DNA from: Pseudomonadota bacterium
Lineage (GTDB): Bacteria > Oederibacteriota > Muellerivitia > Muellerivitales > Muellerivitaceae
Direction of reading: 5' to 3'
NCBI GenBank assembly: GCA_021324075.1
Contig: JAJPJW010000211.1
Location: 1-61,363, forward strand
Length of the DNA: 61,363 nt
The notes under the pieces: model-generated
The model's input: only the letters and a program-made list of their open reading frames with translations
What the model was told of the DNA's origin: nothing
Databases searched by the model: none
Made by a program: the position numbers and the translations under genes
Shown: positions 31,897-56,198 of the stretch, one piece after another
How positions within the stretch are numbered: position 1 is the first letter of the stretch
How the letters are laid out: each line of letters opens with the position of its first letter

Positions 31897-32490
31897 TTGA
31901 AGGCCCGACCTAAGTTGGTTTTAGCTTCGCAATCGCCCCGCCGCAAAGCAATCCTCGGTTTGACGGGTATCCCATTTAAGGTTGTAACACCCAAAGACGT
32001 CATTGAAACTCCCCACCCCGGAGAAACCCCTTCCCAGTTGGTCCGTCGGCTTGCCCTCGAAAAAGCCAAGGCCGTGGCGCGGTTTATGCCCGGCTCCCTG
32101 GTTTTGGGGGCGGATACGGTCGTGGTTTGGCGGGGAAGAATATTTGGAAAACCTAAAAATCGCCCGGAGGCTCTTCAAATGATAAAGCGCCTCCAGGGCG
32201 GGTCTCATTTTGTATGGACGGGTGTGGCGCTGGTTGGGAAAGGCACGGATGTTATCGACGCCCACGTAGAAAAGACCGAGGTTTTCTTGAGGAAATTATC
32301 AGTCCAAGAACTGGACACCTATCTTTCAACGCCGGAACCCTATGACAAGGCGGGTGGTTACGCCATCCAAGGAACGGCCGGCAAATGGATTGAAAAATGG
32401 GAAGGGGATTATTTTAACGTCATGGGCCTTCCACTGGGGTGGGTGCTTGAAGAAGCTGACCGGCACCTTAGCCGTTCAGGAAAGTTTTGA
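31897..32490 (+). CDS. maf: Maf family nucleoside triphosphate pyrophosphatase
   Basis: LVLASQSPRR, GADTVV, GKP, DKAGGYAIQG, NVMGLP. Confidence 0.94.
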   Translation: MKARPKLVLASQSPRRKAILGLTGIPFKVVTPKDVIETPHPGETPSQLVRRLALEKAKAVARFMPGSLVLGADTVVVWRGRIFGKPKNRPEALQMIKRLQGGSHFVWTGVALVGKGTDVIDAHVEKTEVFLRKLSVQELDTYLSTPEPYDKAGGYAIQGTAGKWIEKWEGDYFNVMGLPLGWVLEEADRHLSRSGKF

Positions 32491-33931
32491 CCCCCATTTT
32501 TTTGCGCTGTGAACCCAGGAAATCTTGAAGCCATGTTTGTTGCCGTTCATAATTCATTCGTTGGGTCATTTCGGCCCTTTCCTGGTCGGAGGGAGCCTTC
32601 GAATGGCCCCTTTCATGTGCATCGATAATTTGGAAGAAATACTCCTTTTGATGGATCGAAAGGGGGCCTTTCCATTCCTGGGGATAAAGCCCCGCCAGTT
32701 CGGTGGCGGCATCCTTTGAGTCTGCAACATGGGGAACACCCGTATTCCGATCGAACCAATCGGTGACGGTCAGGGCAAGTCCCAGGTCCTTGGCGGCTTT
32801 TTCCAAAGAGTCTTTTTCCTTCAACTTGCCCGCAAGTTGCTCCGCGATGGCGGCCATTTTTTCGGTGGCCTTCTGCTTGCGGTATTGCTCCTCGACCTTG
32901 GCTCGGACTTCCTCAAACGAGCTTTTGTAAGCGCTTTGGTAATCCTCGATTTGGGCGATGTCATAACCATTTTGGAGTTTGAATGGTTTTGTGACTTCGC
33001 CTTTTTTCAGGCCGAAAATGTTGTCTTCCATGTCCTTGGGAAGAGTTCCGCGATCAATCCAGCCGATTTCACCTCCCAGCTTTTTTGTCTGCTCGTCCTG
33101 GGAATATTTTTGGGCGAGATCCTGAAACTTGGCCTTGCCCGAAAGGACCTGTTGCCGGTAATCGCCCAAGTTTTTTTGGACCGCTTCGGGGTTTTGGAAT
33201 CCTTCGTTTTGGGCCGGTGCTAGGAAAATATGGCGGATTTTCACCTTTTCGGGATGGTCGTATTGGCTCCGGGTGTTTTCATAAAATTCTTTTAACGCAT
33301 CCTCGGTTGGCTTGACGCTTTTTTCATAGGTGGATTCGTCCAGCACAATAAATGCGGCCTTTATGTCGCGGTTCAATAGGGAGATATAGTTGTCCAACTC
33401 CCCGGGTGTAAAAAGAATGCCGTCCAAAAGAACGGAACGGATTTTTCCTACGAGGAGATCGCGTCGCTGGGAATCCTCGAACTGTTGGATGGTCATTTGG
33501 TTCATTTGGAGGACTTGAGCATATTTTTCCTTGTCAAAATTCCCATTTTTATCCATGAAATAGGGTTGGCGGCGAATATTGGCGGCCAATTCCTCGTCGG
33601 AAACGGTGATGTTCAGTTTATTGGCGGTTGATTGCAAAATCAGATTGTCCACCAAGCTATCCAATACCTGTCCCTGAAGGCGCTGGGACTCTTCGCTGGT
33701 TGGCCCTTCGGGTTCGGCTGCGTAGATTTTTTCAACCAAGGGTTGATAGGCCTTGTTAAATTCTTCCCGGGTAATCCCGTTATCCCCGACTTTGGCCACG
33801 AGGTTGGGATCATTTTTGCCCCCGGCCGTATATTTCATGCCGAACACGAAGAAGATACTTCCGACGAATACGGCAACCAGAAACCAAAGTACGACATGCA
33901 TGGTTTTTTTGTCTCGCAATGTGCGCATCAT
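32468..33931 (-). CDS. PpiD/SurA-like membrane-anchored chaperone / parvulin PPIase
   Basis: MMRTLR + TM helix, SurA-N (VAKVGD..IT), parvulin (RHIF...FQDLAQKYSQD..GGEIGW); GGAGG SD. Confidence 0.88.
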   Translation of the reverse strand: MMRTLRDKKTMHVVLWFLVAVFVGSIFFVFGMKYTAGGKNDPNLVAKVGDNGITREEFNKAYQPLVEKIYAAEPEGPTSEESQRLQGQVLDSLVDNLILQSTANKLNITVSDEELAANIRRQPYFMDKNGNFDKEKYAQVLQMNQMTIQQFEDSQRRDLLVGKIRSVLLDGILFTPGELDNYISLLNRDIKAAFIVLDESTYEKSVKPTEDALKEFYENTRSQYDHPEKVKIRHIFLAPAQNEGFQNPEAVQKNLGDYRQQVLSGKAKFQDLAQKYSQDEQTKKLGGEIGWIDRGTLPKDMEDNIFGLKKGEVTKPFKLQNGYDIAQIEDYQSAYKSSFEEVRAKVEEQYRKQKATEKMAAIAEQLAGKLKEKDSLEKAAKDLGLALTVTDWFDRNTGVPHVADSKDAATELAGLYPQEWKGPLSIHQKEYFFQIIDAHERGHSKAPSDQERAEMTQRMNYERQQTWLQDFLGSQRKKMGVKTFLNG

Positions 33932-34001
33932 GGAAGGCCTCCAGAGTTTGGGGTTCCCATGGGAGGGAACGAAATCGCTGAGCTTTGAGTAAAACCCGCG
34001 C

Positions 34002-34029
34002 ATTATAACAAGGTCTTTCATGTGAACAA
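34002..34029 (-). promoter_or_regulatory. Extended -10 promoter of PpiD-like gene
   Basis: TGTTATAAT on minus strand with TTGTTC 16 nt upstream. Confidence 0.5.
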
Positions 34030-34116
34030 TCCCAACTTGGCTCAAAACAACTGTTTAGTCGGATGGAATTCATTTCGAACCCGAGGTGGATAGCCGGCAG
34101 CTTGGATTTGGCGGAA

Positions 34117-34147
34117 TTGACAGTAAAGGCGGTCCACATGGTATAAT
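34117..34147 (+). promoter_or_regulatory. Sigma70 promoter of PorV-OmpA envelope cluster
   Basis: TTGACA-N19-TATAAT with extended -10 TGn. Confidence 0.65.
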
Positions 34148-34175
34148 CGTTAAACCTTTAGACCCTCAAGGCCCC

Positions 34176-35930
34176 ATGCGATTCGAGTTCCTGAAATTTA
34201 AGTTCTTGGCCCTTTTAGTGGTCGGTTTTTCTTTTCTCTTGTCCCCCTCTTTTTCCCATTCCGACAGCGTCAGCACAACCGGCGTTCAGTTTTTGGAAAT
34301 ACCCGCCGGGGTGCGCGGAGCGGGTATGGGTGGAATGTTCACGGCTGTAGCGGACGATGTTAGCACGATGTATTGGAATACCGCCGGCTTGGCCCAACTG
34401 GACCACATCGAACTGAACCTCCTGCATGTCGTTTACTTCGCTGATACAAATTATGAGTTCTTGGGAGCGGCGCTGCCGATTCAATCCGGAAGCACGCTGG
34501 GGTTGAGCGCGGCGTTTGATTTTGTGCCTAGTTTCAATTCGACGAACAACCCCTCCGCCGTCCCTGGAAGCGCCAACGATTTGGCCATTGCCCTTGGTTA
34601 CGGCCAGACCTTTGGGGACAATTTTGCCCTTGGTATTGGGGGCAAGTTCATCTCCAGCAACCTCGTCACTTATTCCGCTATTGGAGAGGCCGTGGATGCG
34701 GGCCTTTTGCTCTATACGCAGAACAAGGACCTGACCTTGGGGTTATCGGTCCAAAACGTGGGGCAAATTTCGAACTTTTCCGATTATTCTTCCCAGGAAA
34801 AACTCCCGATGGTCTATCGAGCGGGGTTGACTTACCGTTTTCAGCAACCGGGGCCGATTCATTTCCTGGCGGGCGTGGACCTGCAAAAGCCGATCGATAA
34901 CGACGCGGTCGTGCAAACGGGCGGCGAAGTTTGGTGGGGCGACAAATCTTTCGCGGTTGCACTCCGAGGTGGATACAGTTTAAACCCCTTGAATCAGGAT
35001 TTGGGAAGCGGTGTTGGGGCCTCCGTGGGGGCGGGTGTTCGAGTATCGGATTTTGAATTAAATTACGCCTTGGTGCCTTTTGGGGTTTTGGGAGACACCC
35101 AACGGTTTTCCCTGACCTACCGGTTTGGTTTTGATGAGGGCGAAAGCCATCAGCAAGACCAAACGAAAAAAACATCGGCGGTGGAAATCAAACCCCAAAT
35201 CGCTGATTATCAAACGGGGACATTAAAACAGGCGACTTTTGACATCAAACCCCAGGCCCGGACTGATATCAAGAACTGGACTTTGGAGATTACCGATCCC
35301 AAGGGCAATGTATTAAGAAGCTACAGCGGAAAGGGCGTTCCGCCCCGCCAGATTGCATGGGATGGAAAGGATAACAACGGCAACGTGGTCGCCGGAGGAA
35401 TATTTGCTAATTACAACCTGAGAACCGTGGACGTCCGCGGCCAACAGGTTGTGGCAAGCGATCCCATTTTTAAAGTTGCAAAAGTTTCGGCTAAGGAAGC
35501 CCCCTTGCTGGCTTCGGTGTCCATGGAACCACGGGTTTTTGCAGCTCCATCTATTCCTGAATCAATCCAACCGGTTGGAATGTCGGGCGCCATGAAAGTG
35601 CCAAGCATTTCCTTCGATGAGAAAAGTTCAAGGCTCACCCCGGAATTCGAAAATTACCTTGATCAAGTTGCCCGCCTCATCCGTCGGTATCCGAATTGCA
35701 GGGTTTATATCGAGGGCCATTCTTACGATGAAGGAACGGAGCAGCAAGCTCTTCTACTTTCTCAGAATCGGGCCGACCGGGTTTTAAGGTATTTGGTAGA
35801 AAAGGGAAGAGTTTCACCGGATAATCTCTACTCGCGCGGCCATGGCGCTTCGACTCCGATGGATACGGGTGATACGGAGGAGGCCCGTGGTAAAAACCGA
35901 CGAGTTGATATCATCATTATCACGAAATAA
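34176..35930 (+). CDS. PorV/PorQ (FadL-like) barrel fused to FlgD-Ig-like and OmpA-like domains
   Basis: Signal peptide; FLEIPAGVRGAGMGG.FTAVADDVSTMYWNTAGL; barrel end LGDTQRFSLTYRF; WDGKDNNGNVV; OmpA C domain (IEGHS...LSQNRA...NRRVDI). Confidence 0.8.
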   Translation: MRFEFLKFKFLALLVVGFSFLLSPSFSHSDSVSTTGVQFLEIPAGVRGAGMGGMFTAVADDVSTMYWNTAGLAQLDHIELNLLHVVYFADTNYEFLGAALPIQSGSTLGLSAAFDFVPSFNSTNNPSAVPGSANDLAIALGYGQTFGDNFALGIGGKFISSNLVTYSAIGEAVDAGLLLYTQNKDLTLGLSVQNVGQISNFSDYSSQEKLPMVYRAGLTYRFQQPGPIHFLAGVDLQKPIDNDAVVQTGGEVWWGDKSFAVALRGGYSLNPLNQDLGSGVGASVGAGVRVSDFELNYALVPFGVLGDTQRFSLTYRFGFDEGESHQQDQTKKTSAVEIKPQIADYQTGTLKQATFDIKPQARTDIKNWTLEITDPKGNVLRSYSGKGVPPRQIAWDGKDNNGNVVAGGIFANYNLRTVDVRGQQVVASDPIFKVAKVSAKEAPLLASVSMEPRVFAAPSIPESIQPVGMSGAMKVPSISFDEKSSRLTPEFENYLDQVARLIRRYPNCRVYIEGHSYDEGTEQQALLLSQNRADRVLRYLVEKGRVSPDNLYSRGHGASTPMDTGDTEEARGKNRRVDIIIITK

Positions 35931-35953
35931 TTCGAGGAAAGGTTTTCAGCGAA

Positions 35954-37171
35954 TTGCTTAAGCCCATTTCCGTCTTTTTCCCAATGACTGCCCTTCTTTG
36001 CCTGGCTTTTTTAGGCGGTTGCCAATACCTGGGTGGATCCATTGAAACGGCTGCTGATTTGGACAAAGACGGCAAAAGCAGCCAGGCTATCCAAGCCTAC
36101 GAAAGTTATTTGACCCACCATCCTTCCTCTACTCTTACGGCCCGAATCGAATACCGGATTGCCAAAAATTATGAAATTCAATCGGATTATATGCATGCCA
36201 TCCAGTCCTATGAAAAAGTCGTGCAAGACTTTCCCCGGACCGATGAGGAATTGCACGCCCTATTGGATCTGGCGACACTTTATAGAGACAAACTCAAGAA
36301 TCCCACCAAAGCCATGGATTACAACCAAAAAGCCTACGATCGTTACATGGAAAATGTCCAAATCCGTGACGCAATCCAGTCATTGATCGATGCACAATAT
36401 TCCACCGCGACAGCGATGTATGTCGGGAAGAATTACAAAAATGCCGGGGAGACGCTTAACAACGTTTATAAGACCTTTCCTTTGATTTTCATCCAGGCCG
36501 ACACCAGGGCCAAAATCGATTCGTTGGCAGACCGTGCTCGGCGCGCGCAAGACATCGCCGCTGCCAGCGTCGATTGGATCGTCCTGAAGAACGAACTGCC
36601 GTTTAATAAAAGCTTTGAGGGGGATTTTGCTCCGGCACAAGATGAACAAGTGATGCAATCCCCCGATGGCGGTTTTTTAGCTGAAAGAAAGCGTGCGTCG
36701 AACGGGACGTTCTATCTTTTCGTTGCAAAAGTTTCCGACAAAAGCGACGATGCCGTTTTTCACCCGCTGACCCAAAGCTTTGGGGCGGAAATGCCGGCCT
36801 GGACCTTGGATGGGCGATATTTGGTTTATTGGCAAACGGTTGGAAAAACACGGAAACTGCAAAAAACGGATATCAGGACTAAAATCACCCAAACGCTTTT
36901 TAGTTCCCGCAGCAACTACCTCGGAATTCATCCCGCCTACCACCCGGCAGGGAACAAGATCGCCTATGTGTATGCCGGAAGGGTTTGTTTGGTTAACACG
37001 GATGGGGCGGGCTATAAACAGTTGTTGAAAACGAGCCAAATGCTTGACTATACTGCCGAATTGTCATGGTCATCCGACGGAACCATGATCCGGTACCGTC
37101 AGGTGAACAAACACAAGAAACCCAATGATGAATTGTTGGTTTTGGATGTTTCGGCCCCCAATAATCCGTGA
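35954..37171 (+). CDS. Lipoprotein with TPR region and C-terminal TolB/PD40-like beta-propeller
   Basis: LGGC lipobox; TPR-like helices (AIQSYEKVVQDFP); SPDG, PAWTLDG, HPAGNKIAY, WSSDG repeats. Confidence 0.72.
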   Translation: MLKPISVFFPMTALLCLAFLGGCQYLGGSIETAADLDKDGKSSQAIQAYESYLTHHPSSTLTARIEYRIAKNYEIQSDYMHAIQSYEKVVQDFPRTDEELHALLDLATLYRDKLKNPTKAMDYNQKAYDRYMENVQIRDAIQSLIDAQYSTATAMYVGKNYKNAGETLNNVYKTFPLIFIQADTRAKIDSLADRARRAQDIAAASVDWIVLKNELPFNKSFEGDFAPAQDEQVMQSPDGGFLAERKRASNGTFYLFVAKVSDKSDDAVFHPLTQSFGAEMPAWTLDGRYLVYWQTVGKTRKLQKTDIRTKITQTLFSSRSNYLGIHPAYHPAGNKIAYVYAGRVCLVNTDGAGYKQLLKTSQMLDYTAELSWSSDGTMIRYRQVNKHKKPNDELLVLDVSAPNNP

Positions 37172-37178
37172 ATTCAAA

Positions 37179-38975
37179 GTGAAGAGGCGCCTTGTGAACA
37201 CCCTGGTTCGCTTTTTTTTGCTTTCTTTTTTTGCGCTTAGCCCTCTTCGGGCATTCGCCCAGGAAGGGAATGAATCCATTTACCTTCAGGCCATCAAGGC
37301 GGATCCCAACAACGAAACGGCCCATCTGAACCTCGGAATCATCTACCTCAACTCCCAAAAATTTGACCAAGCGGTGCCTGAATTTCAAAAATGCATCCAA
37401 TTGAAACCTTCTGATTCGCAGGCCAAGGAACTCTTGGAACTTTGTTTGGGGATGACAGCCCTCAGTAAGGGCGACTATTCGAGTGGAATGGAGCATTTCC
37501 AGAATGTTCTCAAGGTTAATCCGGATAATAAGGATGCGAAGCGCTTGTTGGTTCAGTGCCAAGCCAAAGTTTACCTTGATGAAAAGAAATATTCCCAAGC
37601 AGTAACGGCCTTAAATCAAATAGTCCAAGACGATCCCAAAAATTACTTCGCCTATAAAAACCTGGGTTTTATCTATTTCCAGGAAAAGGACTATAAAAAA
37701 TCCGTGGACTGTTGGGAACATGCGGTCAAACTGCAGCAAGATTCCCAGATATATCAAGCTCTCGGCTTTTCTTTTTATAACTTGGGTGATTTCAGTAATG
37801 CGATTGAGAATTATAAGAAATCTATCCAATTGGAAACCGCCAAGGATCCCAAGGATCAGGATGCAAATGCATTGGATCAGACTTATTACAATTTGGGCGT
37901 TGCCTATCTGGACAATGCCTCTTACGACGAAGCCGCCGATGCGTTTGGAAATGCGTTCAAGGTAAATCCAAAGGATTCCAATGCGGCGGTGAACCAAGCC
38001 AATGCCATCCAGGGCGCCATAGACACCCATTTGAAAAACGCAGCCAATTTCATGTTGAACAGCCAGTACAGCGATGCCATATCGGAAGCGAACAAGGTCC
38101 TGAAACAAGACCCCAATAACAAGCAGGCCCAGGGGTTTATCCAAGATGCCCAAGCCAAAATGGGAGTTGAAGTGGATAAACATTACGCCGCGGGTAAGGG
38201 TTATCTAAAAAAAGGGAACAGCATCCAGGCGCTGAATGAGTGGAATTTGGCCCTCACCATGGATCCCAGCAACCAAAAGATCCAGAATGCGATCAAAACA
38301 TTAAAGGTGAACAGAAATTCACGGGTCAAGGCTTTGATTGCTGAAGGGGATCAGTATTACCAGGCTGAGGATTATTCCAACGCGCTTGTCAGTTACAACA
38401 AAGCCAAGGAAATCGACCCCCATAGTTCGCTGGTGAAATCCAAGTTGAAGAAACTGCTGACCAAGCAGAGTAGTGAAGTGGACGGTGTCTACAGAAATGC
38501 CATGAAGGCTTACTCCAAGGGAGACCTGAAAAGTGCCGGGAAATATATCTCTCTTGCCAAGGAGTTGTCACCGTCGGATGAAAAAATCGGCAACGCCTTC
38601 TTCAAAATCCAAAAAGATATAACGGTTAAAATAAAAAGCCTGGACGCTGACGGGGTTTCGCTTTTCAATAGCGGGGACAAAGAAAAGGCAAAGGCCAAAT
38701 TCCAGGAGGTCCTGAAGCTTAAATCGAGCGATGAAACGGCCAATGATTATGTCAAGCAGATGACGGGTCAACAATCCCAGGAAAAAGTGGACGCGGAAAA
38801 AGTGAAAAGCCTCTACTATGAGGGAGTGAATTTATACATTAATGGGAAGATCCATGAAGCCATTGAAAAGTGGGATGAATGCCTGAAACTCGACCCCAAC
38901 AACAGCAATGCCCAAAGCAATAAAAATAAGGCCATGGTAAAGCTACAATCCATTGAAAAACTGAGCCATAATTAA
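37179..38975 (+). CDS. Exported multi-TPR protein
   Basis: Signal peptide ending AFA-Q; many TPRs (AHLNLG, AYKNLG, YYNLG, DP.N turns). Confidence 0.85.
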   Translation: MKRRLVNTLVRFFLLSFFALSPLRAFAQEGNESIYLQAIKADPNNETAHLNLGIIYLNSQKFDQAVPEFQKCIQLKPSDSQAKELLELCLGMTALSKGDYSSGMEHFQNVLKVNPDNKDAKRLLVQCQAKVYLDEKKYSQAVTALNQIVQDDPKNYFAYKNLGFIYFQEKDYKKSVDCWEHAVKLQQDSQIYQALGFSFYNLGDFSNAIENYKKSIQLETAKDPKDQDANALDQTYYNLGVAYLDNASYDEAADAFGNAFKVNPKDSNAAVNQANAIQGAIDTHLKNAANFMLNSQYSDAISEANKVLKQDPNNKQAQGFIQDAQAKMGVEVDKHYAAGKGYLKKGNSIQALNEWNLALTMDPSNQKIQNAIKTLKVNRNSRVKALIAEGDQYYQAEDYSNALVSYNKAKEIDPHSSLVKSKLKKLLTKQSSEVDGVYRNAMKAYSKGDLKSAGKYISLAKELSPSDEKIGNAFFKIQKDITVKIKSLDADGVSLFNSGDKEKAKAKFQEVLKLKSSDETANDYVKQMTGQQSQEKVDAEKVKSLYYEGVNLYINGKIHEAIEKWDECLKLDPNNSNAQSNKNKAMVKLQSIEKLSHN

Positions 38976-39041
38976 CGTCAATCTTGGGAATGATTGTTTG
39001 ATGAAATTTTGAAAAAGTTTCTATGTTTCCGGTTTTTTTAA

Positions 39042-39118
<77 letters not shown>

Positions 39119-39139
39119 TTTTTAAAAATCCTCTGCTTT

Positions 39140-40642
39140 TTGATTTACCAAGCCGCGTTGTTCTTTCCGCTGCCCCTGGTTCTTTACGCCCAAGTAACCA
39201 CCGATTTCCAAAGGCCTTTTGACCAGGGCCGGGTTATTGAGCTTCCAGGTACTTCGGAATATCAGGGCGATCTCCAGCAAGAAATTGAATGGGAATCTGA
39301 TTTTCCCCGCGTTCACACCCTGGAAGGGATCCTCAATCAAGAAATTGGTTGGGTTCCAACGTCCACGGGAACTGACAGTGCATCGGCTCAAGCTTTGTTT
39401 GAGGGTATCCCCTATCCTTTCCCTTCTTCCAATTTATTGACTTGGGTGCCAGCCTTCCGAAATTTTGAACTGCTTAATTTTCCGGCTTCGGGATGGTGGG
39501 GACCCTCTTCCGCCGTGGGTGCGGTTCAAATCCGCTTACCGGACGAAACAAATGTCTCAAGATCCACCTTTGGGGGGTGGGGCGGTTCCGGCGGAGTCTG
39601 GGGGGGCGAAGGCGACTATGAGAATCCGGACTTTTCCATGGAGGGGTCTTTTCAACACGGTTCGCCAAATTCTTTCGCCTCGACCGATGCGCTTAATATT
39701 CTCTTTGGTTCGAACTTAACAACCAATGATTCCTTAAAAATAAAAACAGGATTCTTGGGGGCTGAGTGGTTTGGCGGCGACAATTGGTATTCCTGGTTCG
39801 GGAGTCTGAAATGGGAAAGCGCCAATTTCCAATCCCTTGAGTTTAAGCCTTTTGTTCAATCCGCCGAACTGAACGGGGTGACCGTTCAAGAGGTTGGCAG
39901 TGACCTCAATTATCACTTCACCATGGGCGGATTGGTGGAGAGCCAGTTGGGATTTGGCTTAAGCCATGATGATTTCTCAGTGGGAGCGGAATCTCTCAAC
40001 AAGGGATATGTCCAAAACCTTGAAATTATAAATGTGTTGGACGACTTCAAGTTGAATATGGCTTTTCGAATGGATTTTTCCAGCACTATGGAGGGTATGT
40101 TCAGCACCACACTGGGCTCCCAATACCGGCTTGGAGATTTTTCAATCATTGGGAGTTATTCAAAGTCGGTCGAGCCGTTATCGCTAACCGATGTAATACA
40201 CGGAGATTTGGGGATCCTGTATCAACCCACGGATTCTTTTTTGGCGGCATTCCGAGTTCTAACCGAAATGTTTGAAAACAGTTGGTGGACGGGTGGCCGG
40301 GCTAAAATCGAATACGACCTTAGCGGTAATGTCCTTGGTTTGCTCCGGGAACTTAAATTTCGAGTTGAAAATCAATTCTTGGAAAGCTCCTCCGGCGGCA
40401 CGCTACTGGATACCGCTGGAAGGGTTGAGTGGAGCTTTGACCAACCTCTGACATTTTGGTTTGAAGCGCGTGGATTTTCAGAACGGAATTTCTATACGGA
40501 CGGCGGCATTGACTGCCTTATCACAAGACAAACAAAAATTTATGCTTCCATTGTGAACATCGGGAATTATCCCGCTTTTTGGCCGGATTCGACGACCCCC
40601 GAAGGACGGATCGCCTGGTTGGGGATAGAAACCGGCTTTTAA
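39140..40642 (+). CDS. Putative outer-membrane beta-barrel, remotely TonB-dependent-receptor-like
   Basis: Hydrophobic N-terminus, plug-like FELLNFPASGWWGPSSAVGAVQI, alternating beta-strand pattern, C-terminal GRIAWLGIETGF; start uncertain (TTG 39140). Confidence 0.55.
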   Translation: MIYQAALFFPLPLVLYAQVTTDFQRPFDQGRVIELPGTSEYQGDLQQEIEWESDFPRVHTLEGILNQEIGWVPTSTGTDSASAQALFEGIPYPFPSSNLLTWVPAFRNFELLNFPASGWWGPSSAVGAVQIRLPDETNVSRSTFGGWGGSGGVWGGEGDYENPDFSMEGSFQHGSPNSFASTDALNILFGSNLTTNDSLKIKTGFLGAEWFGGDNWYSWFGSLKWESANFQSLEFKPFVQSAELNGVTVQEVGSDLNYHFTMGGLVESQLGFGLSHDDFSVGAESLNKGYVQNLEIINVLDDFKLNMAFRMDFSSTMEGMFSTTLGSQYRLGDFSIIGSYSKSVEPLSLTDVIHGDLGILYQPTDSFLAAFRVLTEMFENSWWTGGRAKIEYDLSGNVLGLLRELKFRVENQFLESSSGGTLLDTAGRVEWSFDQPLTFWFEARGFSERNFYTDGGIDCLITRQTKIYASIVNIGNYPAFWPDSTTPEGRIAWLGIETGF

Positions 40643-40691
40643 GGGAAGCATTTCTTGACCCCTTTGCAAAGGCCATGTTAGGTTGCTTGTT

Positions 40692-41618
40692 ATGAAGTGG
40701 TTCTTTTATCTAACCTGTTTTTTGCCATTGACGGCCGCCTTTCCGCTCTGGGCGCAGGACTCCGGCACGACCGGGGCCGACATTTTGAAAGTCCCCATAG
40801 GAGTCCGTCCCGTCGCCTTGGGCGGAAGTTATTCAGCCCTTGGGGATGACGTCTATGTAATGGATTACAACCCCGCTGGCCTTGCCCGCGTTTCAAAATA
40901 CAGTCTTGGAATCGATCATGTTCAGGGGTTTGCGGACGTACAAATAGAATCCCTGAGCGCGGCGATACCCACCCGGAATTATGGAAATTTAGGTGCCCAA
41001 ATTATTTTTCGGCATATGCCTGTCATCCAAAACACCCTCGCGACCGACCCTACCATTTCAGCTGATGATTTTGTCGTAAGTTTTGCGGACGGCCAACAAT
41101 TCGGCAAAATTGCCGTGGGCGGCGCCTTCAAGACAATTGTTTCGACGCTTGGGGAAAAACAAGCATTCACCAATGCCATTGACCTTGGGTTTAAAATCCA
41201 ACTTTGGGACACGGATTTTGCGGCAGTAGTGCAAAATGTGGGGCCGGATGTCCAATTTCAACCCAATTCCCAGGCCTCGGACCCTTTGCCTCTGACATTT
41301 CGACTGGGTGTAGCAAGGCCTCTGATCGTTTCACCCGCTTCCACGCTTTTAACTTCAGCGGAAGTCTTTAACGTGCGCGATGAAGGGACCCAGGCTTCGG
41401 TAGGGTTTGAATATTGGCACCGAAGCGTTTTGGCCATTCGTGCCGGTTATCGTTTCAGCGACGCCGGAAATCTTGAGGGAGGTTTTTCGGCCGGCGCCGC
41501 CCTTCGTTACAATATCGGAAGATTGCAGTATGAGATCGGTTATGCCTGGCGCCCGGCCCAAGTGAGTTCCAGCTTTATTGCCAGTTCGCATTTATTTGGC
41601 CTGCTTTTCTGGTATTGA
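40692..41618 (+). CDS. PorV/PorQ family (FadL-like) outer-membrane barrel
   Basis: Signal peptide; ILKVPIGVRPVALGGSYSALGDD...YNPAGLA; DPLPLTFRLG; LAIRAGY. Confidence 0.8.
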   Translation: MKWFFYLTCFLPLTAAFPLWAQDSGTTGADILKVPIGVRPVALGGSYSALGDDVYVMDYNPAGLARVSKYSLGIDHVQGFADVQIESLSAAIPTRNYGNLGAQIIFRHMPVIQNTLATDPTISADDFVVSFADGQQFGKIAVGGAFKTIVSTLGEKQAFTNAIDLGFKIQLWDTDFAAVVQNVGPDVQFQPNSQASDPLPLTFRLGVARPLIVSPASTLLTSAEVFNVRDEGTQASVGFEYWHRSVLAIRAGYRFSDAGNLEGGFSAGAALRYNIGRLQYEIGYAWRPAQVSSSFIASSHLFGLLFWY

Positions 41619-41644
41619 GACAAGTCCATCCAGCTGACAAAAGC

Positions 41645-41673
41645 TTGACAACATCCTGCCCGATGAATAAACT
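41645..41673 (+). promoter_or_regulatory. Sigma70 promoter of rplU-rpmA
   Basis: TTGACA-N17-TAAACT. Confidence 0.75.
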
Positions 41674-41726
41674 CTTAGACTCTTTGGCCCTTTTTGTCGT
41701 GGGTCCATTTTTAGCGGGAGGAATTC

Positions 41727-42041
41727 ATGTACGCTGTCATTAAAACCGGTGGCAAACAATACCGGGTTTCCGAAGGCGATGTTATTACAGTGGACCGGGT
41801 CAAAGGTAACCCCGGAGACCCCATTGAATTTGCCCATGTCCTTTTATTGGAAAACAACGGCCAGTTGAAGATTCAAAAAAGTGAAGTTAAAAGCATAAAG
41901 GTTGTTGGAAAAATTGTCAGCTCAACTCAGGGAAAGAAAATCAGGGTTTTTCGTTATCGCCGCCGGAAAAACACCATGAAGACCAAGGGCTCCAGGCCGA
42001 AGTTAACGACCGTTTCGATCGAAAAAATCCAAACTGCTTAA
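41727..42041 (+). CDS. rplU: 50S ribosomal protein L21
   Basis: MYAVIKTGGKQYRVSEGD. Confidence 0.96.
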   Translation: MYAVIKTGGKQYRVSEGDVITVDRVKGNPGDPIEFAHVLLLENNGQLKIQKSEVKSIKVVGKIVSSTQGKKIRVFRYRRRKNTMKTKGSRPKLTTVSIEKIQTA

Positions 42042-42068
42042 AAGCAATTTTGTTCAAGGAGAATTGTC

Positions 42069-42329
42069 ATGGGGCAACATAAAGCGGGCGGGTCAACACA
42101 AAATGGCCGGGACAGTCACAGCCAGCGTCTGGGAATAAAAGCCTTTGGCGGTAATTTCGTCACGGCGGGAAGCATCCTGGTCCGCCAGCGCGGCTTACGG
42201 TACAAACCCGGGCAAAACGTCGGCGTTGGCAAGGACGACACCTTATTTGCGAAAACTTCCGGATTGGTTACTTTTCGGGAATTCAAAAAGGGATCAAAAA
42301 TGGTCAGCATCGAGCCCCAAAAGGCTTGA
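42069..42329 (+). CDS. rpmA: 50S ribosomal protein L27
   Basis: [33 protein letters not shown]. Confidence 0.96.
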
Positions 42330-42341
42330 GAGAACCGTTGT

Positions 42342-42372
42342 AAAAAACCTCGCCTTTGGGCGGGGTTTTTTT
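42342..42372 (+). terminator. Intrinsic terminator after rpmA
   Basis: AAAAAACCTCGCC-TTTG-GGCGGGGTTTTTTT hairpin plus U-tract. Confidence 0.8.
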
Positions 42373-42405
42373 GTTTAAGGGCAGTTTTAAAAGAAAGCTA
42401 TAACG

Positions 42406-45517: not shown

Positions 45518-45532
45518 CTAAACGGGGATGGA

Positions 45533-49619: not shown

Positions 49620-50100
49620 TCCGGCAAAGGAAAATTTCCAATAAATGAACGGTTTTTATGGGGAAGAAAATGCGACAGGTGGGTTTAAAGGGACCGGCTG
49701 GGGAAAAATTACTCAATGAGCGGAAGCACCAGAGGAGTAATCAGCCCGGGTGTATTTAGATGGTGCCAAAACATAGACCGTCTCGGAACTCCACTTTACC
49801 AAGCTTTTAAGGGCCTGTTACCCGGACCTGTATAAGATCGTGTTATATTGAGGCCTTGTTTTGTCGTTTTTGCCCCTAAATATTGGGTTTTTCTCACTTG
49901 TTTTTAAAAAAAATGGCGATAAAATCAATAAAGCTCAAAGGTAACGCTTTTACCTTGATGGTTTCGGTGGGGGTCGCACCGTGCGGTGTAATTCTTTTTT
50001 AAATTTTAACGTTTATACATGGTCTGGGAATAGGTCCCTCGATGCGTCCTTTTTCCAATCCTTTACTTCCTTTTGCAAATATCAAATTAAAATTCCTCTT

Positions 50101-53100
50101 ATGACTTTTTCTTTACGGTTTTTCTTTAGTTGCACCCTTGTTTTTTGGAGTACGACCTTGCTCGCGGAAGCCCAAACCGCCTGCCCCAACTGGATCGCCG
50201 TCGGTAGTGCCACCATAGCCGGATCCGCAGTAACCCTGACCCCCAACGCAGGCGGACAAAGTGGCGCTTGCTGGAACAGCACGCCCATCGACCTCAACCA
50301 AAATTTCACCTTGGCCTTCAATGAATATTTTGGAACAGGGGGAGGCGCCGACGGGATCGCCTTTGTCCTGCAGGACGACATCCGTACAACTGCGGCCATC
50401 AGCGGCAATGGGCAGCCCTGCGGTTTTTGCCTGGGATACGGCGGAATCAATCCCATTACGCCGTCCGTGGCTTTTTCCATCAACGACTATCAGGACAACG
50501 GTGTTCTAAAGCCGTGGCAAAACGGGGTGACGATCCAAAGTTGTGGTTACGTTGGGGCGGGGAATTCCTGTCCCTATACCTTTACCAGTACAATCCAAAA
50601 TAACGCCACCCATGCCGTCACCGTTTCTTGGAACAGCGCCACAACGACCCTGACCTACACCATCGTGGACTCGGCCGGGGTGGCCCAATCCATGACCTAT
50701 GTCCGGGACCTGGTCAATACCGTGTTTGGCGGACAAAACCTAGTTTATTACGGATTCACTGCGGCCACCGGCGGCGCTTCCAGTCTCCAGTACATTACCA
50801 ACGCAACCTGCAATACGCCGACGCCCACTCCTGCCTGTTCAAGCGGCACGACTTTCGGCTTGAGTACGGTTGGAGGGACCGCCAGCGGCAATGAAGTCAA
50901 TATCCAGGACAGCACCCGTTACAATTTGGCGAGTTCTGCGACGATCACGAGCATGGCGATCAACCTCACGGCTGCCACGGGAGTAACTGGAGTCGTTGGA
51001 ATTTACGCCGATAATGCCGGGACCCCGGGGAATCTCATCACTCAAAGTTCCCAGCAACAGCTTGTTGCAGGCTGGAATCAGCTGAGTGTTGCCCCGGCTC
51101 CTTTGGTCGCTGGAAGCTATTGGCTTGCCTTTTATATGAGCGCTGGAACCGGAAACGTCGCCTTTAATGCGGGGGCCGCAAACAGCGAGTATTTTGTAAA
51201 TGAAACGGGAGGGCCCTTCAACAGCCTGCAAACTCCCTTTGGGGCGGGGACCGCCGGGACAAAGAATTTTTCCATTTATGCGGTTGGATGTATCGGCCCT
51301 GTGGCAACCCCGACTTTTACACCGACGATCACACCGACGATCATTCCTTGTTCCAGGACTATGAACAAGGCCGTAAGTATTATTGCGGCGGCAAATACCA
51401 CCAGTTTGACGCTGCCGTTGACGATTACAACGGGCCTCGCCAATCCCTTACTGGTTGTACAAATAAGTGATGAATCCAATGCAACCGGCATAACCTCGGC
51501 CACTTATAACGGCGTTAATTTGACCCTCGCGATGGGAGTGACCAGTAGCAATGGCGATGCTTGCTGGACTTATTATGAACCGGGGCCCAGCCTTCCGACA
51601 GACGGCCTCGCGCACAATATCATTGTCAATTTTAGCGGTTCCCATATTGCGGCCATGGGGGCCATGGTTCTTACGGGTGTCGCCCAAACCGCGCCGATCA
51701 TCGGAAATTCGGTGGCATTTCAACAGACGACGAACGTCACGAACCCCAATACGACCATCACGACGACCCAGCCCAATTCATTTATCATCGGCTTCGCCCA
51801 TTCCTACAACAATACCGCCATTACTGCCAGCAGCCCTCAAACCGTTGCCTGGACCGAAACCAACGCGGCCCGACACTGGGCGGGAGACTACCAACTGACC
51901 AACGGCACTGGTTCCTATCCCGTGTCCTATACAACGGGGAATATTCATACGGATATTCAAGCCATCGAATTTTACCCTTCCAGCTGTAACCCGACCGCAA
52001 CCCCGACGAAAACACCGACGAATACAACGACCAAAACCCCAACCTTTACCCCGTCCAGCACGGCCACCAACAGCCCCACGCTTACGCCCACCTTTACCCC
52101 GACCTTGACGGCGACTTATACGGCTACGAACACTCCAACGAGCACCACGACGAACACTACGACGAGTACAGCCACCAATACCACTACGAAGACCGCCACC
52201 AGCACCGCCACCTTTACTGCCACGAATACCCCGACCAATACCGCCACGAATACAACAACGACTACACCTACAAACACTGCCACCAATACCCCAACCAACA
52301 CGGCAACCAGCACAACGACTAACACAACTACCAGCACCGCGACCAATACGGCTACAAAGACTGCGACCAGCACCACAACCACTACGGCTACAAATACCAC
52401 TACCAATACTGCCACGAATACGCCGACCAATACGGCGACGAACACTGCAACTAATACACCCACCAATACCGCTACCAACACAGCTACCAATACGATGACC
52501 AACACGGCTACTAGTACTGCGACGAATACGGCTACAAGCACGGCCACCTTTACTACCACTAGTACCCCGACCAATACACCCACCAGCACGGCTACTAACA
52601 CTCCAACGAATACGGCAACCAATACAACGACTAATACTGCGACGAAGACCGCCACTACCACCGCTACGAACACGGCAACGAACACGACCACCAATACAGC
52701 GACGAATACCGCGACTAGCACTGCAACTAACACACCTACCAATACGACTACAAGCACTCCGACCAACACGGCTACGAATACGGCCACAAACACCGCTACA
52801 AATACGGCTACCAACACCACCACCAGCACGGCAACTAATACGACCACAAACACAGCCACTAATACTGCAACTAACACACCCACCAATACGACTACAAGCA
52901 CTCCAACCAACACGGCTACGAATACAGCTACTAATACTGCGACCAATACGGCGACGAAGACCGCTACCAGTACCGCCACCAATACAGCGACGAATACCGC
53001 CACTAACACCGCCACAAACACGGCTACCAACACGACGACCAATACCGCTACGAACACTGCCACAAACACTGCTACCAATACGACTACGAGCACTCCAACC

Positions 53101-56100
53101 AACACGGCTACGAATACGGCCACCAACACTGCGACTAGTACAACCACAAATACTGCAACGAACACGGGAACCAATACGGCCACAAGCACCCCAACCAATA
53201 CTGCTACGAATACGGCCACAAACACTGCAACCAGTACAGCTACAAATACCGCTACGAACACCGCTACTAATACAGCGACAAATACGACGACGAAAACCGC
53301 TACCAGCACTGCTACAAATACACCCACCAATACGGCCACCAACACCGCCACGAATACTGTTACGGACACAGCCACAAATACTGCGACCAACACGCCTACC
53401 AATACAGCTACCAGTACAGCCACGAATACCGCTACCAATACCCCCACGAATACATTCATCCATACGGCCACGAATACGGCGACGAGTACCCCGACCAGTA
53501 CGCCGACCAATACAACTACAAATACTCCCACCAGCACCACTACCAATACGGCTACGAATACAGCTACCGAAACGGCCACCAATACAGCGACCAATACACC
53601 AACAAATACACCGACCAATTCGGCGACGAACACTGCTACCAATACCGCTACAAATACTGCTACGAATACAGCCACCAATACGGCCACGGATACGGCAACT
53701 TACACGGCTACAAATACCGCTACGAACACGGCCACCAATACAGCTACTAACACAGCAACCAACACGGCCACTACCACCGCAACTAATACGGCGACAAATA
53801 CACCCACGAATACCACCACCAATACGGCTACGGACACGGCCACCAATACGCCGACGTATACGGCAAGCAACACTGCTACGTTGACGGCGACAAACACACC
53901 CACCAGCACAGCGACCAACACCACGACGAATACGGCTACCACTACCCCCACGAATACGGCAACCAACACGACGACCAATACCGCCACCAACACGCCAACG
54001 AATACTCCGACGAATACTGCTACGAATACAGCCACCAATACGGCGACCAATACCGCCACGAATACGGCCACGAACACGACCACTGATACTCCGACGAATA
54101 CGACCACGAACACCGCCACGGATACCCCGACGAACACCGCGACCAATACGGCCACTAATACGGCTACGAATACCGCCACGAGTACGGTCACCAATACGAC
54201 AACGAATACTCCGACGAATACGGCCACGAACACCGCCACGAATACCCCGACGAACACTGCTACCAATACGGCTACTAATACGGCTACGAATACCACTACC
54301 GCCACGGCCACCCAGACAACCACCGATACGCCGACGAATACACCGACTAATACCGCCACGGACACGGCCACCAACACACCGACCCAGACGGCCACAAATA
54401 CGGCTACTGACACGACTACGGAGTCCCCCACCAACACGGCCACTTCAACAGCAACAAACACTCCGACCGATACGGCGACCAACACGGCTACGAATACCGC
54501 CACTTCTACGGCCACGAACACAACCACTGATACTCCGACGAATACGCCGACTCACACCGCTACCGATACAGCCACCAACACCGCCACCAATACGACCACC
54601 AATACGGCTACATTCACCCCCACCAACACAGCGACCAACACGACAACGAATACTCCGACGAATACGGCCACGAGCACCGCCACAGATACCGCGACGAACA
54701 CTGCGACCAACACAGCGACCAGCACTACAACCAATACCGCCACCAGCACCACCACGAATACGCCGACCAATACGGCCACCTCAACCATCACCAGCACGCC
54801 CACCGTTACAGCTACGGCAACGCCGACCGATACGGGAACGCTTCCGCCGACCGCTACACCTACGAACACCGCGACCAATACTCCGACAGGTACTCCCACC
54901 AATACGGCCACGAATACGGCCACCAGCACGGCCACTAATACTGCGACCAATACGCCAACGAATACGGCAACTAATACCGCGACCAATACAGCCACCAATA
55001 CCGCGACTTCTACAACGACAAATACAGCCACCAATACCCCCACTGATACGGCCACCAGTACCACTACCAATACCGCCACACCAACAGCCACAAACACTGC
55101 GACGGCAACGGCCACCGATTCGCCCACCGAGACAGCTACGGGCACTCCAACCAACACAGCCACCGCTACAGCCACCCCCACAACCACAAATAGCCCGACA
55201 TCGACAGCTTCGAGCACGCCAACAGGCACGGCCACCAATACCGCCACTTCAACTTGTACTTATACGACGACCGCCACCGCCACCGGCACAGCCACCGCCT
55301 CTCCTAGCTCCACCACGACCAATACTTCCACCACTACCGCCACAGCTACGGCCACCAACACTTGCACTTCAACCTGCACCTCGACGCCGACGAATACCGC
55401 GACCCAAACAGCCACTTCAACCGCCACCGGGACCTTTACTTCCACGCCGACCTTTACGGCGACCTACACGCTCACGAATACGGCGACTTCCACCGCCACC
55501 AGCACCATCACCCTTACGCCTACCGTCACGGCCACTTCCACGATTACAGGAACTCCCACGAACACCCATACGCCCGGTTGCGGCCTCCAAATGGTCCAGA
55601 TTTACGACGACAGGGGCGAGCAGGTTGCTTCCATTTGCGGGTCGCTGTCCTTCTCGGGAGGGAGTACTTTCTCAATGTCTCTTTCCAATTTCGCACCCAA
55701 CTCAAACGGCCCTGGCGGGACTATCTCGATTTATTTGAATGGCCAAACAGTCGGGACGTGGAATGGTACGAAAGACAGCGGAGATTGGGTACCGAACGGG
55801 TTTTACCATTTTGTCTTGGTGGAACACTCGCCCGACGGGAGCACTGTCCAAATGGAAAGGGATGCCTTTATATCAACTTATCACGGCGAATCGATATCCC
55901 TGGTTGCTTGGCCCAACACGGCTCACCCTGGGCAAATGGTCAATTTCAACGCTTCTTTTGCTGGAACACCTGCGGATTCCCAAAGTAAAATGAAAATCTA
56001 TACAGCCGACGGGGAATTGGTCCAAACCGTCAGCTTTACAGTCGGAACCGCCCTTTGGGACTTGAGAAACCCCTCCGGCCAAGTTGTCGCATCCGGGCTT

Positions 56101-56181
56101 TATTTGGCTGTCTTGGACGGGGTCGATCCATTAAACGGCCAATCCCTTAACAAAGTCGTTAAAGTGGTAGTCACTCACTGA
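50101..56181 (+). CDS. Giant secreted protein: legume-lectin-like and beta-sandwich domains, Thr-X repeat stalk, FlgD-Ig and T9SS-like C-terminal domain
   Basis: Signal peptide; LTP...GADGIAFV...YYGFTAATG (L-type lectin); about 1,190 aa of TATN/TPTN; WNG.KDSG..VPNGFY; WPN...KIYTADGELVQ...WDLRNPSGQVVASGLY...KVVV. Confidence 0.85.
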   Translation: MTFSLRFFFSCTLVFWSTTLLAEAQTACPNWIAVGSATIAGSAVTLTPNAGGQSGACWNSTPIDLNQNFTLAFNEYFGTGGGADGIAFVLQDDIRTTAAISGNGQPCGFCLGYGGINPITPSVAFSINDYQDNGVLKPWQNGVTIQSCGYVGAGNSCPYTFTSTIQNNATHAVTVSWNSATTTLTYTIVDSAGVAQSMTYVRDLVNTVFGGQNLVYYGFTAATGGASSLQYITNATCNTPTPTPACSSGTTFGLSTVGGTASGNEVNIQDSTRYNLASSATITSMAINLTAATGVTGVVGIYADNAGTPGNLITQSSQQQLVAGWNQLSVAPAPLVAGSYWLAFYMSAGTGNVAFNAGAANSEYFVNETGGPFNSLQTPFGAGTAGTKNFSIYAVGCIGPVATPTFTPTITPTIIPCSRTMNKAVSIIAAANTTSLTLPLTITTGLANPLLVVQISDESNATGITSATYNGVNLTLAMGVTSSNGDACWTYYEPGPSLPTDGLAHNIIVNFSGSHIAAMGAMVLTGVAQTAPIIGNSVAFQQTTNVTNPNTTITTTQPNSFIIGFAHSYNNTAITASSPQTVAWTETNAARHWAGDYQLTNGTGSYPVSYTTGNIHTDIQAIEFYPSSCNPTATPTKTPTNTTTKTPTFTPSSTATNSPTLTPTFTPTLTATYTATNTPTSTTTNTTTSTATNTTTKTATSTATFTATNTPTNTATNTTTTTPTNTATNTPTNTATSTTTNTTTSTATNTATKTATSTTTTTATNTTTNTATNTPTNTATNTATNTPTNTATNTATNTMTNTATSTATNTATSTATFTTTSTPTNTPTSTATNTPTNTATNTTTNTATKTATTTATNTATNTTTNTATNTATSTATNTPTNTTTSTPTNTATNTATNTATNTATNTTTSTATNTTTNTATNTATNTPTNTTTSTPTNTATNTATNTATNTATKTATSTATNTATNTATNTATNTATNTTTNTATNTATNTATNTTTSTPTNTATNTATNTATSTTTNTATNTGTNTATSTPTNTATNTATNTATSTATNTATNTATNTATNTTTKTATSTATNTPTNTATNTATNTVTDTATNTATNTPTNTATSTATNTATNTPTNTFIHTATNTATSTPTSTPTNTTTNTPTSTTTNTATNTATETATNTATNTPTNTPTNSATNTATNTATNTATNTATNTATDTATYTATNTATNTATNTATNTATNTATTTATNTATNTPTNTTTNTATDTATNTPTYTASNTATLTATNTPTSTATNTTTNTATTTPTNTATNTTTNTATNTPTNTPTNTATNTATNTATNTATNTATNTTTDTPTNTTTNTATDTPTNTATNTATNTATNTATSTVTNTTTNTPTNTATNTATNTPTNTATNTATNTATNTTTATATQTTTDTPTNTPTNTATDTATNTPTQTATNTATDTTTESPTNTATSTATNTPTDTATNTATNTATSTATNTTTDTPTNTPTHTATDTATNTATNTTTNTATFTPTNTATNTTTNTPTNTATSTATDTATNTATNTATSTTTNTATSTTTNTPTNTATSTITSTPTVTATATPTDTGTLPPTATPTNTATNTPTGTPTNTATNTATSTATNTATNTPTNTATNTATNTATNTATSTTTNTATNTPTDTATSTTTNTATPTATNTATATATDSPTETATGTPTNTATATATPTTTNSPTSTASSTPTGTATNTATSTCTYTTTATATGTATASPSSTTTNTSTTTATATATNTCTSTCTSTPTNTATQTATSTATGTFTSTPTFTATYTLTNTATSTATSTITLTPTVTATSTITGTPTNTHTPGCGLQMVQIYDDRGEQVASICGSLSFSGGSTFSMSLSNFAPNSNGPGGTISIYLNGQTVGTWNGTKDSGDWVPNGFYHFVLVEHSPDGSTVQMERDAFISTYHGESISLVAWPNTAHPGQMVNFNASFAGTPADSQSKMKIYTADGELVQTVSFTVGTALWDLRNPSGQVVASGLYLAVLDGVDPLNGQSLNKVVKVVVTH
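51991..55572 (+). repeat. Coding 12-bp-period degenerate repeat (ACN-GCN/CCN/ACN-ACN-AAY) encoding T-A/P/T-T-N
   Basis: Directly visible in DNA and translation; third codon positions vary. Confidence 0.95.
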
Positions 56182-56198
56182 AAGGAGTGAAGGAATCC

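Follow-up and report, generated by a model that had tools for sequence, protein, structure and literature searches.

The window analyzed here, a 61,363-nt contig (C17) from the 3.57-Mb genome of an uncultured, soil-type bacterium (228 contigs, 98% complete), carries five plus-strand protein genes at 34.1 to 41.6 kb, which we designate B, C, D, E, and F (Table 1). The original prediction treated them as one divergent or minimal machine resembling a type IX secretion system (T9SS), assembled from PorV/PorQ-like barrels and tetratricopeptide repeat (TPR) scaffolds. Comparison of gene neighborhoods did not support a single machine. Our leading reading, in which we place somewhat less than even confidence, is that the cluster is a composite of separable outer-envelope modules: a wall anchor (B and C), a scaffold (D), and a transport pair (E and F). 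The barrels of the window would form part of a phylum-wide PorV/PorQ-like radiation that coexists with a homologue of the SprA translocon and with proteins tagged by a T9SS-type C-terminal domain (CTD), but without GldKLMN, PorU, PorE, or PorW.

The five protein genes and one tRNA gene lie between a minus-strand PpiD-like chaperone gene and rplU-obg-proB; Pfam and NCBIfam domain matches confirmed the predicted same-strand row diverging from the chaperone gene. We hand-chose 18 loci around homologues of E among the matches in families f1 (30 genomes) and f2 (1 genome) and mapped the window proteins onto them. E, F, rplU, and obg stood together at all 18 loci, and the full row (PpiD, then B to F) was found at 10. 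Two loci carried PpiD, D, E, and F without B and C, and two others carried only PpiD, E, and F, D being gone even though its neighbors were kept. At the other four, the upstream DNA fetched contained no match to PpiD, B, C, or D; for two of these, the contig ended upstream of E after 0.2 and 3.3 kb. PpiD adjoined the cluster at 14 of the 18 loci, and B and C were jointly present or jointly absent at every one. Since B and C co-occur, D varies separately, and E and F are constant, the cluster resolves into three modules: (B, C), D, and (E, F).

Table 1. Features of the window (positions counted from its first nucleotide; aa, amino acids; Ig, immunoglobulin; HMM, hidden Markov model; ORF, open reading frame)
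Feature	Position	Strand	Description	Basis
PpiD-like gene	32468..34045	-	Periplasmic chaperone, divergent from the cluster; part of the conserved housekeeping backbone	SurA_N_3 139 bits, Rotamase 84.6 bits
B	34176..35930	+	Signal peptide, PorV/PorQ-family barrel (predicted 14-strand), FlgD Ig-like domain, OmpA-type domain predicted to bind peptidoglycan	HMM matches
C	35954..37171	+	Probable lipoprotein; N-terminal TPRs (YbgF/BamD-like), C-terminal PD40-type beta-propeller	HMM matches and ESM Atlas
D	37125..38975	+	Exported TPR-repeat protein, ~570-616 aa	TPR_2 193 bits over 6 stretches; signal peptide
tRNA-Gly(CCC)	39042..39116	+	Between D and E, inside a 539-aa ORF as called from 39023	ARAGORN
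E	39140..40642	+	Divergent predicted outer-membrane barrel (~22 strands) resembling a TonB-dependent receptor	Structure model, Foldseek, ESM Atlas
F	40683..41618	+	Stand-alone PorV-like 14-strand barrel; N-terminal helical hatch with Asn-Pro-Ala (NPA) motif	NF033709 125.6 bits, UPF0164 33.2 bits
Giant secreted protein	49981..56181	+	2066 aa: N-terminal globular part, then short repeats rich in Thr/Asn/Ala/Pro over ~1300 aa and a pair of Ig-like domains, the second CTD-like
Third barrel	56187..57635	+	PorV-family barrel with C-terminal extension of ~150 aa; 5 nt after the giant gene	NF033709 85.4 bits, E 5e-24

B had been described as a fusion of a PorV-like barrel, a FlgD-type domain, and an OmpA-type domain, and profile searches bore this out. 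Its longest ORF begins at 34086; public gene calls start at 34176, giving 584 aa. The protein scored over the cut-offs of the NCBIfam PorV family model (PorV_fam, NF033709; 158.6 bits, cut-off 90), Pfam FlgD_ig (30.2; cut-off 27), Pfam OmpA (70.7; cut-off 27.2), and Pfam UPF0164 (38; cut-off 21.4). Below cut-off were the PorQ model (NF033711; 120 bits, cut-off 220), the PorV equivalog model (NF033710; 63.2, cut-off 250), and Pfam PorV (21.2; cut-off 27). A sequence search of the PDB returned OmpA/Pal domains and, as the sole solved barrel, PorV (6h3i_F; E 4.4e-6). Matches of the OmpA_C domain were to Pal, YiaD, and YfiB. The barrel-plus-OmpA design was found again in the same genome, fused on contig C201 and split on contig C59. 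In even-stranded barrels both ends face the periplasm, so that the FlgD-Ig and OmpA tail of B would be able to reach the peptidoglycan. The barrel of B is thus predicted to sit in the outer membrane, with its Ig-like spacer and OmpA tail in the periplasm binding the wall. B resembles the OmpA/Pal family of tethers in the relatives of its OmpA_C domain but differs from them in using a 14-strand PorV-type barrel instead of an 8-strand barrel or a lipid anchor.

The proposed partner of B had been called a TPR/propeller lipoprotein. The TPR part of this description of C stood (TPR_6, 33.8 bits; cut-off 26.3), and its N terminus (...LAFLGGC) is lipobox-like. For the propeller, the Pfam PD40 match came slightly under its cut-off (20.4 versus 20.9 bits), and the nearest ESM Atlas clusters were PD40 propellers (0.91). 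C may be a co-inherited lipoprotein partner of B in an outer-membrane-to-wall anchor. D proved to be the long exported TPR protein that had been predicted, with a signal peptide and the TPR_2 matches given in Table 1. It matched generic TPR families only, the PorW/SprE model reaching 33 bits against a cut-off of 250, and it would serve as a periplasmic TPR scaffold.

The reading frame called for E required correction at its start. The 539-aa ORF contains tRNA-Gly(CCC), and its first ~35 codons are the translated tRNA gene. Its first ~40 residues gave widespread 70-96% matches in other genomes, which are the tRNA read as protein (...GRNSAVECQLPKLDVVGSSPIARS...); translation of the tRNA therefore produced spurious phylum-wide "homologues" of this ORF. 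The tRNA gene is kept upstream of E in most relatives (the window and loci L111-L128). E itself probably starts near 39140, and its mature end (AQ|VTTD) is conserved among relatives. Full-length relatives of E were confined to f1 (28 of 30 genomes) and f2 (its one genome).

No Pfam or NCBIfam family matched E, and neither the Plug (PF07715) nor the TonB_dep_Rec (PF00593) HMM did. A structure model built from a 14-sequence alignment (predicted local distance difference test [pLDDT] 66.5; predicted template-modeling score [pTM] 0.63) showed ~22-23 strands over residues 126-483, the first ~120 residues being poorly modeled. The best PDB matches of this medium-confidence model in Foldseek were the barrels of the TonB-dependent receptors Cir, PirA, and BtuB (E ~1e-7; template-modeling score [TM] 0.42-0.51), and the nearest ESM Atlas clusters were Plug-domain receptor proteins (0.97). 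The earlier description of E as a TonB-dependent-receptor-like barrel is thus a fair label, if an unproven one.

F was confirmed as the PorV-like barrel it had been taken for, by the NF033709 score and by fold. It stayed under the cut-offs of the PorQ model (87 bits) and the PorV equivalog (31 bits) and had no Pfam PorV match. The structure model (pLDDT 87.1) comprised 14 long strands and a helical N-terminal hatch, and Foldseek placed Flavobacterium johnsoniae PorV first (8gl6_F, E 1.8e-13, TM 0.75; 6h3i_F, TM 0.72), followed by Escherichia coli FadL (2r89, E 1e-9, TM 0.65), TbuX, and TodX. By sequence, PorV 6h3i_F was again the only solved barrel matched (E 1.1e-3). The best 26 places for F, the window's own included (51-100% identity), all lay in f1 or f2, and the next best were 39-43% identical. 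Together, E and F may form an outer-membrane channel pair for transport, in which a TonB-receptor-like barrel would stand beside a hatch-plugged PorV-like barrel.

All three barrels of the window had been assigned a common sequence motif. As given, with five residues between DD and N, it matched none of the three; with six residues it matched B and F. A looser version found 8 sites genome-wide, all in PorV-family paralogues. The shared element is the NPA motif of the hatch, which is also present in FadL and PorV (sequence alignment; PMC8407342). Because the motif is common to FadL and PorV, it cannot separate a PorV-like from a FadL-like function.

The phylogeny did not place the window barrels with PorV or PorQ. 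Our quick maximum-likelihood tree comprised 36 barrel domains (15 paralogues from this genome, 2 from f3 genomes, 5 Bacteroidota PorV, and 14 PorQ), from which the partial or weak paralogues C148, C67, C123, C11, C24, C112, and C129b and the extra PorV-like copies L232-L235 of genome G115 were omitted. Bacteroidota PorV and PorQ each formed a clade (Shimodaira-Hasegawa-like approximate likelihood ratio test [SH-aLRT], 100). All 15 paralogues fell outside both, as an unresolved radiation on the PorV side, and no window barrel is therefore an orthologue of either protein. F grouped with paralogue C68a and the two f3 barrels (SH-aLRT 93, below the 95 mark), with B next (80), and the third barrel grouped with C129a and C59 (96). 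In the f3 genomes, sprA is followed by a gene for a 709-aa DUF11/fn3 protein with a FlgD-Ig-like end and then by a PorV_fam barrel gene; F was the closest paralogue of this barrel in our genome (105 bits, versus 97 for the next).

The F. johnsoniae PorV (PDB 6H3I and 8GL6), the general carrier of type A cargo, shares with F the 14 strands, the hatch at the N terminus, and an NPA-type motif. It differs from the window barrels in sequence (17% identity) and in being single, whereas 22 paralogous frames occur here, one of which, B, additionally carries the FlgD-Ig and OmpA domains. PorQ, a member of the attachment complex, offers a second comparison: its model outscored the PorV model for B, F, and most paralogues, always under its own cut-off, but its clade excludes the window barrels and its partner PorU was not found in our genome.

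A barrel and its possible cargo are encoded at 50 to 57.6 kb, where a third PorV-like gene had been reported directly after a giant CTD-bearing protein. The 5-nt spacing agrees with this. The barrel scored below cut-off, narrowly for NF033709, and also for UPF0164 (15.3 bits), the PorV equivalog (27), and Pfam PorV (17.2). No Pfam or NCBIfam family covered the whole length of the giant protein. Its last 233 aa matched FlgD_ig over cut-off (37.1 bits) and the CTD end of the PorZ model (E 4.2e-7); the CTD model TIGR04183 stayed below cut-off (18.2 bits versus 23). The conserved end reads PN..HPG ... ASG.YLAVL ... K..K.LV.H. Orthologues of the third barrel were found at 23 loci of family f1, 21 of which have the giant's C-terminal region upstream of the barrel. 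A complex prediction from our own alignments (residues 35-335 of the barrel with residues 130-233 of the giant's last 233) scored 0.09 against a mark of 0.32, which speaks neither for nor against binding. By analogy with known carrier genes, the 56187-57635 barrel is most likely a candidate dedicated carrier or anchor of the giant protein, the two making up a cargo and carrier pair. The repeat region is probably a mucin-like stalk and possibly glycosylated. Its ~1300 codons of NTATNT/PTNT-type repeats account for the extreme base skew of the window at 52000-56000 (GC skew, -0.35 to -0.45; AT skew, +0.36 to +0.54). The minus strand immediately upstream of the giant gene (48583-49545) carries a gene for an NHL-repeat propeller.

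The gene order noted there by the original prediction, with a barrel gene placed after a CTD-like cargo gene, proved to be a genuine pattern that is conserved. In the genome as a whole, PorV_fam gave 25 matches in 22 open frames, 12 over cut-off. For 6 of the 22 frames, the immediately preceding gene encodes a protein with a CTD or FlgD-Ig domain at its end. These cargo ends were recognized by TIGR04183 on C106, C67, and C123, by the C-terminal part of the PorU model on C148, and by FlgD-type models on C26 and in the giant protein. Chance adjacency of CTD genes and barrels (26 CTD sites in 3.57 Mb) is estimated at far below one case. Type B T9SS cargo genes are followed by genes for their own SprF/PorP carriers, which are thought to hold the cargo on the surface (PMC12635249). 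The six frames here, and likewise the barrel gene behind sprA in f3 genomes, share the gene order of SprB-SprF but differ in family, belonging to PorV/PorQ, and the SprF/PorP model TIGR03519 matched one paralogue only (31 bits). Unlike those of type B cargo, the ends of the cargo proteins look like type A CTD or FlgD-Ig domains, and no GldK match was found for attachment to a track or hub. In analogy to SprF/PorP, barrels directly after CTD-ended genes are most likely dedicated carriers or anchors of that cargo.

The barrel family is a general-purpose one, and its frames have varied surroundings: lptD-like and lptF genes on C13, flhB-like, fliA, and flgA genes on C129, and polysaccharide export genes on C26. 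From the flagellar genes on C129, the organism appears flagellated. We also observed a repeated cassette (C10:20800-33692, C226:5900-10022, and C24:1-2200) of an extracytoplasmic function (ECF) sigma factor, a small FlgD-Ig-ended protein that may be anti-sigma-like, a barrel-TPR fusion, and an NHL-repeat protein; the copy on C10 also has a 1797-aa subtilase with a CTD. The cassette resembles a regulated unit of cargo and carrier.

The absence of SprA and GldKLMN had been noted for the window, where it holds; across the genome, the two parts of that statement diverge. A 2021-aa ORF on contig C155 is an SprA/Sov homologue (TIGR04189; 207.6 bits, cut-off 200). An earlier Pfam SprA_N profile search of the genome, run without a positive control, gave no match and is superseded by this result. 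Upstream of the homologue (L080 7429-19825) lies a LytTR-type two-component pair (His_kinase and response regulator), and downstream an fn3-containing ORF of >1408 aa runs off the contig. TIGR04183 matched 26 times in the genome, 22 over cut-off. Profile searches of the 98%-complete genome found no GldK, GldL, GldM, or GldN, those for GldK, GldL, and GldN having no positive control, and no PorU, whose model matched CTD-like ends only (<=32 bits versus 420). In the four genomes of the genus, neither PorE (<=46 bits; cut-off 600) nor PorW (<=41 bits) came over cut-off, the matches being at the level of OmpA or TPR domains. No complete canonical T9SS was therefore available to explain the components, in line with what had been proposed.

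We extended these searches to 99 genomes of the phylum. SprA was matched in 92 of 99 at E<=0.001 (by per-frame sums, the cut-off was passed in 7 of 99), and PorV_fam in all 99, with 2-23 matches each at E<=1e-10. GldM was matched in 0 of 99. The same GldM search of 41 genomes from the phylum containing an Ignavibacteriaceae metagenome-assembled genome (MAG) matched 10, 9 over cut-off, indicating that it is able to detect the protein. In that control phylum, 24 of the 41 genomes had PorQ over cut-off, with as many as 15 matches in one genome, compared to 10 genomes for GldM. Single MAGs labeled Calditrichaceae, Cloacimonas, and WOR-3 had SprA over cut-off and no GldM match; of 5 genomes searched there, 4 had SprA and none had GldM. 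Given these MAGs and the excess of PorQ over GldM in the control phylum, the reduced set is probably not unique to this lineage. At E<=1e-40, 58 of the 99 genomes each had a single full-length match to paralogue C13a, and 30 of these lie outside the order. This is the distribution that a universal SprA partner should have, and it is shown by C13a and not by F.

Several points weigh against the composite of modules that we favor. The proposed tether role of B derives from homology of its OmpA domain, and the receptor-like fold of E from a model of medium confidence. No other paralogue in the genome is closer to the sprA-linked f3 barrels than F, which also groups with them in the tree. Given the membership of the barrels in the PorV family, the CTD-rich genome, the presence of SprA, and the lack of PorE and PorW, B to F could still be secretion parts that have diverged beyond the reach of HMMs. 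Finally, since no canonical TolB or FadL came over cut-off in the genus, the modules could stand in for Tol-Pal or for FadL.

The strongest competitor, in essence the original prediction, takes up these points and makes B to F an accessory complex of a reduced, non-canonical T9SS. B and C would be a re-partitioned PorE, built on a PorQ/PorP-like barrel and anchoring the system to the wall; D would be PorW-like, E PorF-like, and F a general PorV-like carrier receiving cargo from SprA. PorE (PG1058) is a lipoprotein of the T9SS with TPR, beta-propeller, and OmpA domains, and these domain types are here divided between B and C; the best match to the PorE model in the genome is the OmpA domain of B (41.1 bits). 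Among solved structures, PorV stands closest to B and F in sequence and to F in fold, and F lies nearest to the f3 sprA-linked barrels. SprA and the 26 CTD matches are present, and because canonical PorE, PorW, PorU, and GldKLMN are missing, substitutes would be needed. With only 6 CTD/FlgD-ended genes having a barrel next door, most cargo would also need a general carrier.

Against such a complex, the modules can be separated, and relatives can do without B-C and D at the locus. Orthologues of E and F end at the order boundary, whereas SprA is phylum-wide, and C13a is the better candidate for a universal carrier. The equivalog cut-offs of PorE, PorW, PorV, and PorQ were missed by wide margins, and the cluster contains no cargo, sprA, or regulator gene. 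The domains of PorE would have to be split over two genes, with OmpA placed on a barrel, and the PorE model matches that OmpA part only (39.6-41.1 bits). The likenesses to PorE, PorW, and PorF on which the original prediction relied thus come down to shared domain types, far below the family cut-offs. We consider an accessory T9SS complex a serious possibility but a rather unlikely one.

Two further alternatives seem to us about equally improbable, and markedly so. In one, B, C, and D would be a Tol-Pal-like module for outer-membrane stabilization or constriction, with the tail of B acting as Pal, C combining CpoB/YbgF-like TPRs with a TolB-like propeller, and E and F serving unrelated transport. 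C, whose YbgF-like TPRs and PD40 propeller recall the Pal-TolB-CpoB proteins, matched tol_pal_ybgF (51.3 bits) and TolB (26.1 bits), the tail of B matched Pal (55.1 bits), and none of the 4 genus genomes had a TolB over cut-off (best, 81-88 bits versus 343). All of the scores for B and C, however, lie under the family cut-offs (90.1 for tol_pal_ybgF, 343 for TolB), no tolQRA genes are nearby, other PD40-propeller genes on C101 and C115 could be the real TolB, and B and C are missing from the locus in several relatives.

In the other, all of the PorV-like barrels would be FadL-type uptake channels for hydrophobic compounds, a role already proposed for the UPF0164 proteins of Treponema, the neighboring "CTDs" would be Ig-like domains of the ordinary kind, and secretion would play no part in the window. 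Pfam and NCBIfam disagree on the barrels: B and F fall in Pfam UPF0164, and Pfam PorV is below cut-off for B and the third barrel and without a match for F. We take UPF0164 to be the family of Treponema pallidum TP0548, TP0856, TP0858, TP0859, and TP0865. The treponemal FadL-like family consists of 14-strand barrels, three of the five members having TPR-bearing C-terminal extensions, and its function was inferred from modeling (PMC8407342). As here, that family is paralogous, and its extensions resemble the PorV_fam-TPR fusions on C10 and C226. The NPA motif, as noted above, is shared with FadL, and a canonical FadL (Pfam PF03349 Toluene_X, cut-off 29.7) was over cut-off in none of the 4 genus genomes, the best score being 19.6 bits for paralogue C13b. 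We looked at whether the barrels cluster with FadL: PorV ranked ahead of FadL in both the sequence and the fold searches, and the barrel tree, having no FadL outgroup, gives no placement of the family relative to FadL. Unlike the treponemal proteins, the family coexists here with SprA and CTD cargo. CTD models, and not FlgD_ig alone, match the genes upstream of the barrels on C106, C67, and C123, and the phylum-wide occurrence of SprA and the cargo-end and barrel pairing at the f1 loci count further against uptake channels.

The cluster is set in a housekeeping neighborhood of the core genome. On one side are bamA, surE, genes of purine and fatty-acid synthesis (pur and fab), rnc, and maf, then ppiD, whose product scored 156.8 bits against NCBIfam PRK10788, below the cut-off of 493; on the other are rplU, obg, proB, a DnaJ-TPR/Hsp70 pair, and nadD. 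Scans of 33900-42400 were near background, with 13 promoter-like sites (8.6 +/- 3.2 expected) and 20 terminator-like sites (13.5 +/- 3.3 expected); the single promoter-like site singled out lies before rplU (41645-41673). The DnaJ-TPR/Hsp70 pair (44951-47296) consists of a DnaJ-domain and TPR protein followed by a 587-aa Hsp70, unlike the usual dnaK operon layout. At 11118-14947, two tandem genes with an O-antigen-ligase-like (Wzy_C) membrane domain and C-terminal TPRs are inserted among the purine biosynthesis genes.

Current models of the T9SS hold that a GldLM/PorLM motor and a PorKN hub are needed to pull carrier-cargo complexes off SprA. A more speculative proposal, which we think unlikely, is that the phylum, and possibly also WOR-3, Calditrichota, and Cloacimonadota, runs the SprA translocon without GldKLMN/PorKLMN or PorU, with the PorV-like radiation as cargo-dedicated carriers and B, together with C and E-F, as a fixed hub of a motor-less type 9-like surface display. 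The TXSScan study reported T9SS in 60 of 97 Bacteroidetes genomes and none elsewhere (PMC4793230), and two reviews assign the system to the Fibrobacteres-Chlorobi-Bacteroidetes (FCB) superphylum without component lists (PMC11205867, PMC8754138). The literature that we searched contained no description of PorV-OmpA fusions or of SprA/PorV/CTD sets without GldKLMN in candidate phyla.

The cluster itself, as a composite of modules, would be a set of ordinary envelope parts drawn from an unusual barrel family. Within it, the fusion of a barrel with FlgD-Ig and OmpA domains would be a simple and so far unstudied answer to the problem of tying the outer membrane to the wall. The genomic result, an SprA-centered system without its known energy chain, is the more interesting one: the lineage keeps SprA, CTD proteins, and many PorV-like barrels without any detectable part of that chain. 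If secretion through SprA does take place here, these bacteria would provide a natural test of the translocon alone and would show how carrier barrels diversify.

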